Virus record (IMG/VR): IMGVR_UViG_3300045974_000399
Location: 1 to 64,000 of that record
Length of the DNA: 64,000 bases
Direction: 5' to 3' (one strand)
DNA from: a virus
Below, in pieces: positions 3,017 to 63,899 of this stretch. Position 1 is the stretch's first letter, and the number at the start of each line of letters is the position of its first letter. The translations under genes and the position numbers were made by a program. A model generated the notes under the pieces. It was not told where the DNA came from, did no database searches, and saw only the letters and a program-made list of their open reading frames with translations.

Positions 3017-3415
3017 ATGAAGACACCTGCAGAAAAGTTAACGCATAACCTGGAAGCAGCCGTAAGACGTCTTAGCAAGGTACGTCCTCTCCCTGAACTT
3101 CCAGACCCAACCCCGGAAGAACAAGAGCGTATCCAGTTCGTTATGGCAACCCCAAATTTTGACCTCAGGGGTCGTTCTTACATGGCTGAGATAATTCGTA
3201 GAACACCGCTGTGTACTGGGTATATGCTATTTCTCAACCAAAGATGTAGCCTTGCCTACATTATGCACCGGGATGACGTTGACGATATGGACTTCATGGG
3301 CGCAGTACCTCCGGCAGAGCGCTTCCCTATTCCCAGATACTTGTGGGAAAGGCACCCTGAGTACATTCGGCGCTGGGTATTCAAGAAGATGTGCCAGCGT
3401 TCAAACAGACTGTAG
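3017..3415 (+). CDS. hypothetical protein
   Basis: 132-aa ORF with AAGGAG RBS. Confidence 0.65.
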   Translation: MKTPAEKLTHNLEAAVRRLSKVRPLPELPDPTPEEQERIQFVMATPNFDLRGRSYMAEIIRRTPLCTGYMLFLNQRCSLAYIMHRDDVDDMDFMGAVPPAERFPIPRYLWERHPEYIRRWVFKKMCQRSNRL

Positions 3416-3457
3416 ATATTAAAGATCCATTATTTCTATAATTTAAGGAGATACAAT

Positions 3458-4051
3458 ATGCAATACGGAATAAGAGGCTTAATGCCCACAACAATAAGCT
3501 GGAATGCGTCTTCTGAAGGGGACGATATAACCAGGTTAAATGGAGATGTAGGCGAGTTTCGGCTGTTCAAAATTCTGCCCACCACTTCTCTTAACCATCC
3601 GGTTGAACTGATTGGTCTTGGGGCCCGCAGGAAGTGCAACAATATAGAGGAAGCCCAGGACTTGGCCAAGGAAAGGCTTAGACAACTCTTTTCTAGGCTA
3701 CTCGAAGAAACTATATCGGACACGCTTTCGGCTGAACTCGCGGAGTCACCTGGTCTTCTGGATAGCTTTTTGGCTATAGCCTATTACGTGCGATCCAATG
3801 AGGGCCGCGTGGATATGCGGGTAGCAAATGGGCTGAAGAATGCCTATCGGGGAGTCTTGCCACAGTCATATACTGTTCATGATCTTGTAACTACCAAAGA
3901 CCTGATACTGCTTAAGATGGAGAACTTCGGCAGACATTCCTTGCAAGCAATGCGGGCCACGATAACTGAATACTTGGAGTATCGAAAGACTAACCCGATG
4001 CCTGAGTATATAAAAAAGGGGATAGAGGGATGGCAAAGCAAGGCATACTAA
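3458..4051 (+). CDS. protein with RNA polymerase alpha-CTD-like C-terminal domain
   Basis: MRVANGLKNA..TVHDLV..LLKMENFGRHSLQAM aligns by eye to the RpoA CTD (VRSANCLK..IGDLV..LLKTPNLGKKSLTEI); AAGGAG RBS. Confidence 0.65.
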   Translation: MQYGIRGLMPTTISWNASSEGDDITRLNGDVGEFRLFKILPTTSLNHPVELIGLGARRKCNNIEEAQDLAKERLRQLFSRLLEETISDTLSAELAESPGLLDSFLAIAYYVRSNEGRVDMRVANGLKNAYRGVLPQSYTVHDLVTTKDLILLKMENFGRHSLQAMRATITEYLEYRKTNPMPEYIKKGIEGWQSKAY

Positions 4052-58210: not shown

Positions 58211-58843
58211 TTAAAAGTCGATATTCTGTTGCTTAACTATATCACGGGTCCTGAAGTTATACGCTATGAGCTGACCCATACCCTTCTTATCCCGCGTTAT
58301 GCCTCCATCCAGTACTACCTTTGTCCTCTTTCGGGCTTGACTCTTTATTACACTCTGCTTAGTTGGAGTGTGACCCTCCAATATAGTAGTATGAGTATCC
58401 ACGTTAACTATATCCAGATCACCATGATGAAGCACATACTTCTTTGTAGTAACAACTGAAGGCATCTCACGCAGAAGCTTTATATACTTTCGAGGTATCT
58501 GCTTAACTTCACTAGCTCCAAAGCTTTGAAGAGTCTCTGGATACTTTTTCTCAAACTCAACCCGATGCACAGGCATTGTCCAAGCATCAAGAAGTTTCTG
58601 GTCATTGTTCCCGCGAATGAATACTACTTCTTGGCCTCTGTCCCGCAATGCTATCAGGATATCCAAAACGCCTTTAGAATCAGGGCCCTTGTTGATATAG
58701 TCCCCAAGAAAGTACAGTTTATCAATAGCCCTAAGCTTTATCTTGGATAACAGCTTTAGAAGTGTCTTGGGACATCCATGCGTGTCACCTATCGCCCATT
58801 TATTTCTAGTTTCAATACTTGCCAACGCTCTGATAACTTTCAC
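58211..58843 (-). CDS. calcineurin-like metallophosphoesterase (phage Ser/Thr phosphatase family)
   Basis: GDTHG, GDYINKGPDS, RGNND, H and GHTP motifs. Confidence 0.88.
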   Translation of the reverse strand: MKVIRALASIETRNKWAIGDTHGCPKTLLKLLSKIKLRAIDKLYFLGDYINKGPDSKGVLDILIALRDRGQEVVFIRGNNDQKLLDAWTMPVHRVEFEKKYPETLQSFGASEVKQIPRKYIKLLREMPSVVTTKKYVLHHGDLDIVNVDTHTTILEGHTPTKQSVIKSQARKRTKVVLDGGITRDKKGMGQLIAYNFRTRDIVKQQNIDF

Positions 58844-59406
58844 TATGTCCTCCTTGCCATTCCCTCTGGTCTGGATACGTTAAGACCCTTAGAGTCTCTG
58901 TCGTAGCGTTCCTTAGGGAAGGTCTTGAATATATCCGAGATGTCTTCGCACTCAATCTTACTAAATAGCATTTCATCGGTAGTACGAGAGTTCTTTGATG
59001 GCCGTAAAAGTAAATGCACAGGAATAAGCACGTTATCCCCGAATACATCCTGAATGGCTTTACAACGAGTACGGCCTTCATGCCCACCTGTCTGCCAAAA
59101 CTTATCCGCTATAACCCAATGCAGGGTTAAGAATGGATTACCCATCGGTGTACCCTCCTCAATACATCTTTTCATGAAGTTTGAGTTAGGGTACTCAGTT
59201 CTAACTTTAGCCAGAAACAGAAACTCTTTGGGCTTCATATAGCAGGTTACACCTTCATACTCTATATTCTCATTGAATGGCGTCTGACCCACTCCATAAC
59301 GAGCATTAAACAGTTGATCCATGCAGGGCATACCAGCTATGTACTTATTATCCCCTACTCGGGGCTTGAAGGAGTTGGAAAGTATTCTATATCGGGTCAC
59401 ACGCAT
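58843..59406 (-). CDS. ParB/Srx-like domain protein
   Basis: P.L...GHEGRTR..A..IPV pattern; start coupled to the terminase stop (TGATG). Confidence 0.5.
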   Translation of the reverse strand: MRVTRYRILSNSFKPRVGDNKYIAGMPCMDQLFNARYGVGQTPFNENIEYEGVTCYMKPKEFLFLAKVRTEYPNSNFMKRCIEEGTPMGNPFLTLHWVIADKFWQTGGHEGRTRCKAIQDVFGDNVLIPVHLLLRPSKNSRTTDEMLFSKIECEDISDIFKTFPKERYDRDSKGLNVSRPEGMARRT

Positions 59407-60926
59407 CAGCATCTCCTTCGTATCGTCCCCATTGCCTTACCGTCAGATGCTAACTGAGAACCTACACTTGCGCCTTTACTACTCCCCATCTTTGTTGTAA
59501 CTGAACCCAGCGCGCCACCCCCTGATGATACTGCGTCAGGACCATTAAACAGGTCTTGATTCTCATCTGCCAGAAGTCTAGTCATAGCCAAGCAATATGC
59601 ACGGAACATATCATCATTAAGATTTTCGCCTTTCAGCACCTTAGACCCAGAGTCCTGAACGGTAATACATTGAAGAACAAAGTGGGCGACAGGGGCCTTA
59701 GAGAAGCAATTAGGATAACTGGCGTGGTCATACTCCATTATCTCATCTTTTTCCCACTCAGGCCGCGGTAAAGATACTTCCTTGTCTTCTAGATAGGCTT
59801 TGGCAATGCCCATTTCAGAATACGATACTGAGTACTGATGAGCATCTATCTCATGGGCTGCTGCGATATCCTGCAACAGCTTTATAGATTGCCACCTGTC
59901 AGCACAAACCATCTGTATGTTCCGGCTCTCTATCAAGGGCACGATGAGCTTGGCATACACAAGAGAGTGGTTAACTGGAACTCCAGGCAAAGGCTGTACT
60001 TCAAGAAGCAAATCAATAACTGGCTGACCGGTATCCCTGTCGATATGCGCTATGCAGCAACCAAAAGCGTTGTTTGAAAACCCTGCATCCAAAGCCAGTA
60101 TGGAAGGACGCTTGGCTCTTCGTATCTTTCCAGGGATAGCAAATCGCGTTATATCCTTTGACTTCTTATTCGTGCGCTGTCTAAAGGATATCTCTGTGGC
60201 ATTCCGATAGTTCTTAGAGCACTCCAGAACAGTCATTATATTTCGGATGAACGGGTTATTCGTCAAAGGTGGATTTGCCCCGTAGTCGCGTTCCGCTTCA
60301 ACAGGGTCCTTTGTATACTCAGCAGCCAAATCTTCCCGGGTTATGTTTGGATTCATCTCCCAGGTTGGTCGGTGAAACGCCAGTATTGTATTCGTCAACT
60401 TGGCCTGCTTTACCAAGCTCATTATCTTATCACGAGCATGCGAAGGAGAACTGACGTTTGTGAAGTATGCAGTTAGGATGTTGTCGTAGCCATTTCGTAT
60501 CAGCTTATTCGCTGCTGCTCTAACAGTAAGAAGCGAACGCTCAAGCGCGATATACACCTCGCCCGCGTCATCCTTTATCTTCTTCTTCAAAGCGTCGTTA
60601 TTGAACCACCCGATCTCATCTATAGCCCCAAAGAATCTGGTTCTACCGCGTAGAGTTTTCTTGTTTGGACCCGAGGCGTACATCAGGAGTTTTCTGTGGC
60701 GATATAGGATGAACGTATCCTTAAACCGATATAGCTCTTCACCGTACCGCTCTGAGTACTCATCCAGCATTTCATGATAAGCACAATTATGAACATTTAC
60801 CCCATTCGCAAAATAGTTATGATGATTCTCAACCTCTATATCGTAAACTGGTTTTAACCCCACAGAACGTATTGAAGTAACCGTTGCTAACTTTATTCTT
60901 TTACCGTCAATTTCAATCTCACGCAT
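59406..60926 (-). CDS. terL: terminase large subunit, C-terminal part, preceded by split intein C-fragment
   Basis: IntC VYDIEV..NYFANG..VHN|C, then Walker B IDEIG and nuclease LALDAG..DRWQ..NDD; AAGGA RBS. Confidence 0.9.
   Translation of the reverse strand: MREIEIDGKRIKLATVTSIRSVGLKPVYDIEVENHHNYFANGVNVHNCAYHEMLDEYSERYGEELYRFKDTFILYRHRKLLMYASGPNKKTLRGRTRFFGAIDEIGWFNNDALKKKIKDDAGEVYIALERSLLTVRAAANKLIRNGYDNILTAYFTNVSSPSHARDKIMSLVKQAKLTNTILAFHRPTWEMNPNITREDLAAEYTKDPVEAERDYGANPPLTNNPFIRNIMTVLECSKNYRNATEISFRQRTNKKSKDITRFAIPGKIRRAKRPSILALDAGFSNNAFGCCIAHIDRDTGQPVIDLLLEVQPLPGVPVNHSLVYAKLIVPLIESRNIQMVCADRWQSIKLLQDIAAAHEIDAHQYSVSYSEMGIAKAYLEDKEVSLPRPEWEKDEIMEYDHASYPNCFSKAPVAHFVLQCITVQDSGSKVLKGENLNDDMFRAYCLAMTRLLADENQDLFNGPDAVSSGGGALGSVTTKMGSSKGASVGSQLASDGKAMGTIRRRC
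60786..60926 (-). mobile_element. split intein, C-fragment (47 aa)
   Basis: block F VYDIEV and block G HN followed by +1 Cys. Confidence 0.92.
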
Positions 60927-61848
60927 ATGATTTTTCCTTGACGAGGGAGCCATTACGCCGCATTACTAGGATTTTAAATTCAAATCCAGCTTCTAGGCAG
61001 GCTTTACGTTTTCTTGTATTCACCTTTTTCTTTTGTCGCTGCGTAAAGGTACTCTTTACTTCAACGATAAGATTTAAATGTGGAATATAAATATCAGGAT
61101 GGTATACGTGTTTCTTTCTCTCAAAGGTATAGGGTATACTAGGAATACCTTTGCAGCCAATACCACACCTTATTTGAGAAGGCGATATACCTGAGGCCAG
61201 TAGATAATCCAAAGCTTGTGGCTCATAACCTTGAATCAAAACAATTTTTCTACCCAACTTGTACTCTTTGTGATTATACGAAGTAATTAGATTCTTATCA
61301 AATAGTTCTTTATTCTGAAGTGCATGCTCAGCTCCATAGCGTTTTAACATCGTGCTTTTAATCTTTTCTCTTACCTCAGGTCTCTGTGCAGAATGTGCTA
61401 CCCCGTACTTTTTTATACTCTTCTTTTTAGCACGTAACTTAGAACAATCTGGTTCAGGACAACCTGCTATTCGTAAGTTAGAAAATATTGGTTTCCATAT
61501 ATGCCCACAACGTAGACATTCTGCAGTTACTCTTTTGTTCATCCTAAGCAATAGCTTTTTGGTAATAACCCTTATTTTTTGTTTACTAAGATTTTTCAGC
61601 ATTCTTTCAGTTGAAAAGCTAGAGCTATTCTTTGCCCTCTCAAGCTGGTCCTTTTGACGTTGACAGACACAGCGATATTTACGAAAATAGTAAAGGTGTC
61701 GTTCTCGAGTATCCCCGCATTCCCTACATTTAGCCTTTAAGATGCTAGAGGTTACACGCTCTAGTATTTCGTAGGTAGATACCTTGAGTATCTGCTGGAC
61801 CTCAAGAAATGTTCTTTCAGTTTTTTCCTTGCGTGTTTCTGTAGGCAT
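60919..61848 (-). CDS. free-standing putative homing endonuclease (Zn ribbons, KYG repeats, PD-(D/E)XK domain)
   Basis: CREC, CVC, CLRC and CPEPDC; KKYGVAH/KRYGAEH repeats; YHPDIYIP..IVEVKS; AGGAGA RBS. Confidence 0.8.
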   Translation of the reverse strand: MPTETRKEKTERTFLEVQQILKVSTYEILERVTSSILKAKCRECGDTRERHLYYFRKYRCVCQRQKDQLERAKNSSSFSTERMLKNLSKQKIRVITKKLLLRMNKRVTAECLRCGHIWKPIFSNLRIAGCPEPDCSKLRAKKKSIKKYGVAHSAQRPEVREKIKSTMLKRYGAEHALQNKELFDKNLITSYNHKEYKLGRKIVLIQGYEPQALDYLLASGISPSQIRCGIGCKGIPSIPYTFERKKHVYHPDIYIPHLNLIVEVKSTFTQRQKKKVNTRKRKACLEAGFEFKILVMRRNGSLVKEKSYA

Positions 61849-61856
61849 GCTGTCTC

Positions 61857-61906
61857 CTAGACAATCTTTGATATACCTCAAATTACGATAATCAAAGATT
61901 GTCTAG
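61857..61906 (-). promoter_or_regulatory. 16-bp hairpin overlapping the endonuclease RBS, with late-promoter-like TAATTTGAGG in its loop
   Basis: ctagacaatctttgat (61857-61872) / atcaaagattgtctag (61891-61906). Confidence 0.7.
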
Positions 61907-61925
61907 CATTGCGTGATAAACCAGC

Positions 61926-62912
61926 CTATTCTACTACAACTTCATCACCTTCACGCAGTTCAGATACTTTCTTCCAAACTAGCCGGTTGTTCTCAAAGAC
62001 ACGTACCTGATGTTTATCTGTAGCAGGAAGCTGTTGATTTGTGTCTAGAGAGATTTCAAAGCATTCCTTCACACCATTATTGAATAGCTGTACCGCCTTT
62101 TCGGGCCCCTCAAGTGTCCGAAGTAAATCACCTGGGCAGATGTCTTCGATCAACTTCTTTGAGCCATCAGCTAAGGTAATCTCTGTACCTTTGGCGATAC
62201 AGAACCAAGGCGACTCAGCTAGATATTCATAGAAAGGGTCCCACAGTGTTTCCTTTGCTTGTGCGTAAGTCAAAGCAACGAAAGTACCATGAAGTATTGT
62301 CCCTGCATTTAATCCTAACAGTTGGATAGGATTCTGCAGCTTAAGAAACCTGTGGACAATGTACGCAGCAATCATGGCAATCATATGCGACTTGGCACTA
62401 CGTTGCCCTGCTAGTCCAGCTAGCTCTTGATAGGGTTTAAGCTCCCCGTTGTTTATCATGTCAGAGCGCTTAGCCCCGCACTTAGGGCACTTACCATACA
62501 CAAGCAGCGTTACTTTTTTCTTGAACAGCTTAAGAGAGGCGTCAACAGGAACGTTCTCAAACCACACTAAGTCAGTACAGTGTGGACAATACTCCTGAAA
62601 TAATTTTGTGGGTATCTCATTCTGACGAGCAAATCCCTTAACCTTAAGGAACTCTGCCCCGTTCAAGAATGTTACAAAGTTTGGAGCAGTAGGAAGATGT
62701 GAATCATTTATTTTTACGTCCAGCGGCACGCCCAAATCGGACTTAAGTATCGACTTAATCAGGCGATACATGTTGAACTTTACATCTGGAGCCGATACTT
62801 CGGGTAACCGTGAACTGGTTGATGTCTGGTTAGGGTCTGTGTTTACATCTAGAAATAAATCTACTCTCTTTATTGGTACAGGTTTTACTGATTTCAGTTT
62901 TTTGCGCTTCAT
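61926..62912 (-). CDS. terL: terminase large subunit, N-terminal part, ending in split intein N-fragment
   Basis: Walker A-like AGQRSAKS and FVALTYAQAK, then WF|CIAKGT intein start. Confidence 0.9.
   Translation of the reverse strand: MKRKKLKSVKPVPIKRVDLFLDVNTDPNQTSTSSRLPEVSAPDVKFNMYRLIKSILKSDLGVPLDVKINDSHLPTAPNFVTFLNGAEFLKVKGFARQNEIPTKLFQEYCPHCTDLVWFENVPVDASLKLFKKKVTLLVYGKCPKCGAKRSDMINNGELKPYQELAGLAGQRSAKSHMIAMIAAYIVHRFLKLQNPIQLLGLNAGTILHGTFVALTYAQAKETLWDPFYEYLAESPWFCIAKGTEITLADGSKKLIEDICPGDLLRTLEGPEKAVQLFNNGVKECFEISLDTNQQLPATDKHQVRVFENNRLVWKKVSELREGDEVVVE
61929..62201 (-). mobile_element. split intein, N-fragment (91 aa)
   Basis: block A CIAKGTEITLADG, block B ATDKH, W..VSELREGD. Confidence 0.92.
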
Positions 62913-63392: not shown

Positions 63393-63899
63393 TTAGGATT
63401 CATCTAGTGGTTCAGAGGTCTCACTGGTTAGGGTTAATTTTCTATCCAGGAATATTTTGTTCAATATCTCCAAGAAATACTCCTTTTCACCTTGACTGCT
63501 CCAGCTGTTTACTACGCATAAAGTAAGATGTGGCTTATACTCTTCATAGTCAAAGGTGAACCCGTATTTCTTACGCAAAGCTGACTGGCGTTTATCCAAA
63601 CTAGGGCAGGATAGCAGAGCTACCAGTATATCTCCCTCTGAAGTCTCTGCCCAATTCTCAACCCCAGTTATGTACGCAGTGTGCATTAGAGTTGGATCAG
63701 CAGAAAACGCATCATTATCGGTTCGCGAGTATATCTCAGTAACATGCAAGCTATCTGGATCTCTAACAGTGCAGTTAATCTGGAGCTTAACTCTGTCTAT
63801 CAAACAGCAGATTGTGTTAGCGGCACTCAGTAGAGGTTTTACTGAAACATATACTCCACCGGGCGCTGCTTTGGCTAAAGTAATAGTCAGTACTCTCAT
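63393..63899 (-). CDS. acb1: 2H phosphoesterase, Acb1 (T4 gp57B)-like anti-CBASS nuclease
   Basis: GVYV, LHVT..YSR, W..LV, DYEEYKPHLTL and C-terminal E..EPL match the T4 gp57B layout. Confidence 0.8.
   Translation of the reverse strand: MRVLTITLAKAAPGGVYVSVKPLLSAANTICCLIDRVKLQINCTVRDPDSLHVTEIYSRTDNDAFSADPTLMHTAYITGVENWAETSEGDILVALLSCPSLDKRQSALRKKYGFTFDYEEYKPHLTLCVVNSWSSQGEKEYFLEILNKIFLDRKLTLTSETSEPLDES

Follow-up and report, generated by a model that had tools for sequence, protein, structure and literature searches.

The gene for the large terminase subunit (TerL) of an uncultured jumbo phage (PaBG/NCTB-like), carried on the minus strand of the window (the whole 64,000-nucleotide stretch that was analysed, positions 1 to 64,000 of the IMG/VR record IMGVR_UViG_3300045974_000399), is broken in two by the halves of a split intein, with an endonuclease gene lying between them. 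We consider it very probable that this is a fractured gene, in which the gene of a putative homing endonuclease separates the two halves of a split intein and TerL is formed by protein trans-splicing. The record is fragmentary, with 81.9 kb and a completeness of about 31%, and comes from a pond metagenome. The sequencing runs listed for this DNA include no RNA run, and the one DNA run among them is probably the source sample. A second assembler's contig, probably from the same pond sample, is identical across all 3,507 bases of the three-gene stretch, and a megablast of this 3.5-kb stretch against phage records returned no match. In the order of transcription, TerL-N with the intein N-half (IntN) is followed by the endonuclease and then by the intein C-half (IntC) with TerL-C, as set out below with the lengths of the products in amino acids (aa).

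62202 to 62912, minus strand: TerL N-extein, 237 aa, with the Walker A motif GQRSAKS, a Cys-rich insert and the C-terminal residues ESPWF.
61929 to 62201, minus strand: IntN, 91 aa, with Cys1, block B T61-D-K-H64 and an acidic tail, followed by a TAG stop at 61928-61926.
61857 to 61906, minus strand: hairpin with arms at 61906-61891 and 61872-61857 and a loop that contains TAATTTGAGG.
60919 to 61848, minus strand: endonuclease gene, 309 aa from an ATG with the Shine-Dalgarno (SD) sequence AGGAGA, in a frame that differs from those of both TerL halves.
60786 to 60926, minus strand: IntC, 47 aa, with block F Asp29 and block G His46-Asn47, directly followed by the +1 Cys.
59406 to 60785, minus strand: TerL C-extein, 459 aa and a stop codon, with the +1 Cys, the Walker B motif FFGAIDE and an RNase-H-like nuclease domain.

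A sequence-only reading of the window had described a TerL-N that carries Walker A and ends in a 91-aa intein half and a stop codon, a separate gene with its own ribosome-binding site that opens with a 47-aa intein half and continues with a Cys, Walker B and the nuclease domain, and an endonuclease open reading frame (ORF) between the two; all three are present as described. The ORF at 62912..61926 (328 aa) consists of the N-extein, ending in ESPWF, and IntN (CIAKGT...TDKH...EGDEVVVE), and the ORF at 60926..59406 consists of IntC (MREIEIDGKRIK...VYDIEV...VHN) and the Cys-led C-extein. The best start for the latter is the ATG at 60926, which overlaps the endonuclease stop (ATGCGTGA) and has the SD sequence AAGGA upstream. 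An in-frame ATG at 60953 is an alternative start that would add nine residues; homologous proteins begin near the shorter form, and the IntC-TerL-C homologues P0016-18, P0020 and P0023 start at the same place.

Both halves are recognizable as inteins. They fall on complementary parts of the Pfam Intein_splicing model (IntN on positions 39-96, IntC on 114-155), scoring 24.8 and 29 bits when taken alone, with a cut-off of 35.8. IntC also matches TIGR01443 (intein_Cterm) at 29.7 bits (cut-off 15.6), and IntN also matches Pfam Hom_end_hint and Hint_2. In the PDB, IntN matches the Prp8 intein 6mwy (E 6e-5) and IntC matches the Spl DnaX mini-intein (E 2.5e-7). The residues of class-1 splicing are all present here, namely Cys1, the T-x-x-H motif, the block F Asp, the His-Asn pair and the +1 Cys. 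IntN Cys1, T61 and H64 (C238, T298 and H301) are invariant across 11 family members, and the block F Asp, His-Asn and the +1 Cys are kept in eight IntC sequences.

This conservation bears on an alternative in which the two halves would associate through their intein fragments without splicing, giving a noncovalent two-chain motor that carries a folded intein. Tight binding between the halves of split inteins is known, as are fractured genes that have no intein (SbcD-like, Aeh1 NrdA; PMC2677866). However, the splicing residues are kept in all members, a conservation that the chemistry needs and binding does not, and the +1 position is always Cys where the intein is present, whereas empty alleles have Ser, Gln, Lys or Arg there. 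Kelley 2016 (PMC5050341) also argues that the pentamer is unlikely to assemble with an unspliced intein in the ATPase domain. We therefore give this alternative very little credence, and continue with the fractured, trans-spliced gene as the preferred reading.

The joined exteins are colinear with intact terminases. A lack of such colinearity had been named beforehand as grounds for rejecting the reading, and comparison with intact terminases (those of phages NCTB and PaBG, the homologue P0019 and the locus L130) gave the opposite outcome. Residue 237 of the N-extein aligns to residue 206 of NCTB TerL and residue 3 of the C-extein to residue 209, with no gap and no overlap, and the alignment to the intact TerL of PaBG is likewise gapless. 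P0019 is an intein-less TerL of 693 aa (82-84% identical to both halves, at 82% for the N-extein and 84% for the C-extein) that reads ESPWF/SAYHAML across the junction (the slash marks the insertion point throughout). L130, at 79-82% identity, shows the empty site at the DNA level as CCTTGGTTC/CAA. The splice junction predicted earlier, ESPWF-CAYHEM, agrees with both.

The break recurs well beyond this phage. In eleven more proteins from metagenomes, at 41-48% identity, the frame ends after IntN, with the same insertion point and the same break, and five other proteins begin with IntC and a Cys. The same split is thus seen in at least 12 lineages that are just 40-50% identical, with all frames open. 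An assembly artefact is ruled out, since the second assembly is identical and 11 independent proteins stop at the same position. The whole cassette is also carried by the loci L058, L059 and L152, each with TerL-N-IntN, a homologous DUF7487 endonuclease (37-44% identical) and IntC-TerL-C, with tight gene overlaps.

A contiguous form of the intein is found as well. In L055, L056 and L057, a contiguous mini-intein of 133 aa lies at the same site and reads ...DDLVVA-DGKIVHL... across the break point, so that the split intein is broken where the contiguous one has VV(A)/DGK. This allele scores 50 bits (in L056) against Intein_splicing, above the cut-off that neither split half reaches alone, and can be aligned over its whole length with mini-inteins of solved structure (Npu DnaB, 7e-9; gp41-1, 3.6e-5). 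The TerLs of the split P0003 and the contiguous L055 are 95% identical; split and contiguous states therefore coexist in near relatives.

By its sequence, the intein is distant from every characterised split intein. IntN has no match to gp41-1 or Npu DnaE, IntC reaches only E 0.3 with gp41-1 and about 0.7 with Npu DnaE, and neither half matches any TerL-intein chain in PDB sequence searches. A homologue search limited to the IntN region recovered the query alone, with no close relative of this intein. Judged by this distance, the pair may be orthogonal to the characterised split inteins, Npu DnaE and gp41-1 among them.

The identification of the host gene rests on PHROG, annotated homologues and a fold search, since Pfam gave no terminase family for either half or for P0019. 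Both exteins match phrog_17415 (terminase large subunit), the N-extein at E 9.5e-61 and the C-extein at E 4e-147, and the C-part is 38-42% identical to the annotated TerLs of PaBG, phage NCTB, and Erwinia and Dickeya jumbo phages. The C-extein has no phmmer match in the PDB, and the best fold matches of a model of intact P0019 are solved large terminases (HK97, 4.8e-6; T4 gp17, 1.1e-5), with the G20c terminase also among them. The Walker A motif carries an Ala variant that is also found in the intact relatives P0019, P0021 and P0022; a defective Walker A is therefore ruled out. Two neighbors of the split gene, both on the minus strand, are a 168-aa protein that matches phrog_755 "RNA ligase" (63393-63899, E 5.5e-21) and a NinI-like Ser/Thr phosphatase (58211-58843, phrog_246, E 2.3e-24).

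The gene between the halves encodes a protein with two Zn-ribbon-like Cys clusters, two (K/R)YG-x-x-H-x-x-Q repeats and a C-terminal PD-ExK domain; the ORF listing also gives an alternative start at an upstream TTG (320 aa). An in-frame endonuclease domain of a contiguous intein is ruled out by the stop codon and the different frame. The protein matches Pfam DUF7487 (PF24308) at 122.3 bits (cut-off 27, E 3.7e-35), as well as the PHROG "endonuclease" and "homing endonuclease" families, and E209, P251-D252 and E263-V-K265 are invariant in 26 homologues. Its AlphaFold2 model (mean confidence score, pLDDT, 92) shows a C-terminal restriction-endonuclease-like domain. VIA-align places this domain closest to TnsA (Z 8.6), followed by Vsr (Z 6.0) and I-Bth0305I (Z 5.8); the values for Vsr and I-Bth0305I are in the range of a common restriction-endonuclease-like fold, and that for TnsA is higher. 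A Foldseek search of the PDB with the endonuclease model had no match at E <= 0.001. The family profile has no nuclease match among PDB sequences (1cw0 and 3r3p are absent at E <= 10), and the Vsr family is not among the Pfam matches at E <= 0.1. Since the sequence profile finds neither Vsr nor I-Bth0305I, the protein is, as judged from its sequence, a canonical PD-ExK nuclease with the predicted active site E...PD...EVK, unlike that of Vsr, which is His-based (PMC2677866).

DUF7487 is a large family, with homologues in 10,980 cluster representatives at E <= 1e-3, most of them outside inteins. Proteins of this type occur in cultured jumbo phages, among them PaBG and Staphylococcus phages, where they are described as an "endonuclease fused to N-terminal Zn finger domain." Free-standing homologues also lie just upstream of intact, intein-less TerL genes (L068:6316-6675 and L063:5053-5742), an arrangement that would be expected if DUF7487 nucleases target the neighborhood of TerL even in the absence of an intein. 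The GC content of the endonuclease gene is 37.8%, and IntC (60786-60926), at 34.8%, resembles it rather than IntN, at 43.6% (the exteins and IntN together range from 43 to 47%). The cassette is thus GC-poor, a composition that points to foreign DNA. It also hints, weakly because the IntC stretch is just 141 nucleotides (nt), at a joint arrival of IntC and the nuclease gene.

A spacer of 80 nt separates the IntN stop from the endonuclease gene. Within it is a hairpin with 16 bp of perfect pairing, and the 3' arm extends over the first two bases of the SD sequence of the endonuclease gene (61858-61853). In a context of 101 nt, the folding energy of the hairpin is -32.6 kcal/mol (z -4.9), and none of 200 shuffles is as good. 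A comparable hairpin stands ahead of the endonuclease SD sequence in L059 (z -2.2), and none is present ahead of the endonuclease gene in L058 (z 0.0), so that the hairpin is not universal. The motif TAATTTNAGG lies within the loop (61876-61885, minus strand) and also at 3439, 37198, 45916 and 56589. The window thus holds five copies against 0.68 expected, a number that none of 100 shuffles reaches, and the loop of the L059 hairpin also has TAATTTA. By analogy with the late-promoter hairpins of Dassa et al. (2009), TAATTTNAGG could be a phage promoter that lies inside the hairpin.

The sequence of steps that we infer for the origin, splicing, homing and regulation of this locus would be as follows. 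A mobile cassette would have entered a class-1 mini-intein at the loop where the homing-endonuclease domains of inteins normally lie, bringing with it a stop codon, a regulatory hairpin, the DUF7487 PD-ExK endonuclease gene and a new start codon. Three proteins would then be made, namely TerL-N-IntN, the endonuclease and IntC-TerL-C. Association of IntC with the acidic IntN would let the two fold into a HINT domain, and splicing would proceed by an N-S acyl shift at Cys1, trans-thioesterification to the +1 Cys, cyclisation of Asn47 and an S-N shift, yielding one TerL of 696 aa with the predicted junction. Walker A and Walker B lie on different halves, and neither half alone can therefore be a packaging ATPase; DNA packaging would thus depend on trans-splicing. 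The probable targets of the endonuclease are TerL alleles without the intein in co-infecting relatives, and cutting them would spread the cassette; the hairpin over the SD sequence probably limits translation of the endonuclease. The start/stop overlap would couple translation of the C-half to that of the endonuclease.

The distribution of the split state was examined on a maximum-likelihood tree of 58 N-exteins (P0012, which has a second intein, was left out, and duplicates were dropped). The 12 split rows require 12 state changes, no better than shuffled labels, and at least nine of these changes are imposed by branches with good support. For most split TerLs, the nearest relative is a TerL that lacks the intein, and near relatives can be unlike in state, as are P0001 and P0019, and P0003 and L055. 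The identities of intein and extein are weakly correlated (rho 0.37), with discordant pairs in both directions: P0007 and P0010 are 84% identical in their exteins and 47% in IntN, and P0008 and P0011 are 57% and 73% identical, respectively. Since the split state is scattered on the tree, the cassette would have been gained or lost often; scatter and discordance fit such a history, and fit gain and loss alike.

Several points weigh against our preferred reading, and some of them concern mobility. The scatter on the tree is explicable by repeated precise loss as well as by gain. In L059, the endonuclease is found in two ORFs (2187-2951, the Zn-ribbon part of 254 aa, and 3026-3658, the nuclease part of 210 aa), which is either a decaying or a two-chain form, and some cassettes may therefore be decaying. 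An intein that splices in a cassette that no longer moves would account for both, with the DUF7487 nuclease inactive or recruited elsewhere, and with the scatter arising from repeated precise loss or recombination with intein-free alleles. Consistent with this, the divergence of the intein here from other members (37-48%) is about that of the exteins (41-49%), as for old vertically inherited elements, and the very large DUF7487 family, as noted, resides mostly outside inteins. However, all four catalytic residues are present here and do not vary within the family, one nuclease family occurs in all four cassettes, the discordant pairs suggest exchange, and the near relatives that differ in state speak against an immobile element too. 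We regard the loss of mobility as unlikely, though by some distance the most credible of the alternatives considered here.

Other points concern splicing and the need for it. The charge complementarity of the halves is modest, with a net charge of -5 for IntN, and of 0 overall and about +3 in the first 25 residues for IntC. The AlphaFold model of P0019, on which the insertion site would be placed, is poor in the ATPase domain (pLDDT <50 at residues 158-383). The record is only a fragment, and a second, intact TerL elsewhere in the genome is possible; the split TerL would then be a dead gene, its function taken over by a terminase in the roughly 69% of the genome that lies outside the record. 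Yet both halves are long open frames without frameshifts and keep the high identity to intact TerL given above, the splicing residues are all kept, and the split recurs with open frames in the at least 12 lineages. The 82 kb of the record hold only one TerL match, and related complete jumbo phages have a single TerL at the same syntenic position. A dead gene is, in our judgment, highly improbable. The fractured gene with a trans-spliced product therefore remains the reading that we prefer.

TerL in this clade of jumbo phages is a hot spot for inteins (L056:6764-12397; L059:3618-6701; L152; L007; and L003, which is the TerL of Erwinia phage pEa_SNUABM_5). At least four insertion sites recur, namely the P-loop (GQR/SGKS), ESPWF/C, Walker B (TRF/C...HN/CSAIDE) and a site near C-extein residue 230. 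L056 has a single ORF of 1,877 aa with three insertions, and in L152 the split intein shares its TerL gene with one intein in the P-loop and another in Walker B. The gene that precedes TerL has an IntC-like match (L056:5137-5232 and L132:3137-3232), which points to a further intein in a gene neighboring TerL in that phage.

The layout of the locus is of a known kind, as the sequence-only reading had recognized when it placed the locus among fractured phage genes and set it apart from an atypically split TerL intein, in agreement with published accounts (PMC2677866, PMC11766414). Dassa, London, Stoddard, Schueler-Furman and Pietrokovski (2009, PMC2677866) described fractured genes with split inteins (gp41-1, gp41-8, NrdJ-1, IMPDH-1, NrdA-2 and others), whose hosts include a phage terminase, the sole case with an unusual break point. 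The locus studied here resembles theirs in that a DNA-handling phage gene is broken by a split intein at the endonuclease-insertion loop, with a free-standing endonuclease between the halves that has its own translation signals. Shared as well are a hairpin before the endonuclease start (upstream of the endonuclease in 15/16 of their loci) and an endonuclease 3' end that overlaps the downstream half (3' overlaps of 6-69 bp in theirs). Their gene-breaking model is supported by the contiguous allele found here. The differences are that the host is a jumbo-phage TerL, broken at ESPWF/C between Walker A and Walker B; that the intein is far by sequence from gp41-1 and NrdJ-1 (IntC E 0.3-0.4); and that the endonuclease, a canonical PD-ExK protein of DUF7487 by its sequence, is unlike the types reported from fractured genes, which are GIY-YIG and Vsr-like (PMC2677866) and HNH (PMC6892783). 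The HNH case is the PolB gene of the jumbo phage MIJ3 (PMC6892783), which is alike in being a fractured essential gene with a split intein and an endonuclease gene between its halves, and unlike in host gene and nuclease.

GOS-TerL, AceL-TerL and Cat-TerL are other naturally split class-1 inteins of phage large terminases with a +1 Cys, and the first two go back to the terminase case of Dassa et al. Their split is atypical, with an IntN of 25-37 aa and an IntC of 104-115 aa (PMC11766414), unlike the canonical split of 91/47 aa seen here. TerL is an established hot spot for inteins (PMC5050341), and inteins in the TerL of this jumbo-phage group have been mentioned briefly (PMC7412058). The cis-splicing TerL inteins of mycobacteriophages (TerL1 a-e, TerL6-f and Pham3880-g; PMC5050341) and those of the "Lupandier" jumbo phages (PMC7412058) are alike in clustering in the ATPase domain, and relatives of the phage studied here have further inteins in the P-loop and Walker B. 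Those inteins are contiguous, however, mostly with an in-frame LAGLIDADG endonuclease, whereas the one described here is split and accompanied by an out-of-frame, free-standing nuclease gene. Among the papers searched, none deals with a canonically split TerL intein or with DUF7487, and we found no report of a PD-ExK DUF7487 endonuclease in a fractured gene. The layout is a well-supported case of a known kind, here at a new site, with a canonical break and with a nuclease family for which we found no such report.

A broader reading is plausible, and we hold it tentatively, with clearly less confidence than the fractured gene itself. DUF7487, with more than 10,000 clusters, may be a large class of free-standing PD-ExK homing endonucleases, one lineage of which would have invaded a TerL mini-intein and would now move as a cassette of split intein and nuclease among environmental jumbo phages, with empty, contiguous and split alleles coexisting between TerLs up to 95% identical, and with a Cys1/Cys+1 pair orthogonal to the characterised split inteins. 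If this joint reading is true, the fracture of an intein could be studied in nature. The allelic series of empty, cis and split forms in closely related TerLs fits the published model of the origin of split inteins. DUF7487 gains a concrete context, as a putative homing nuclease that fractures a gene. The canonically split terminase intein adds a family to the few natural split inteins known, and its at least 12 divergent natural variants, together with the contiguous allele, are raw material for orthogonal protein-ligation tools. For these jumbo phages themselves, it would make packaging dependent on a ligation that takes place after translation.

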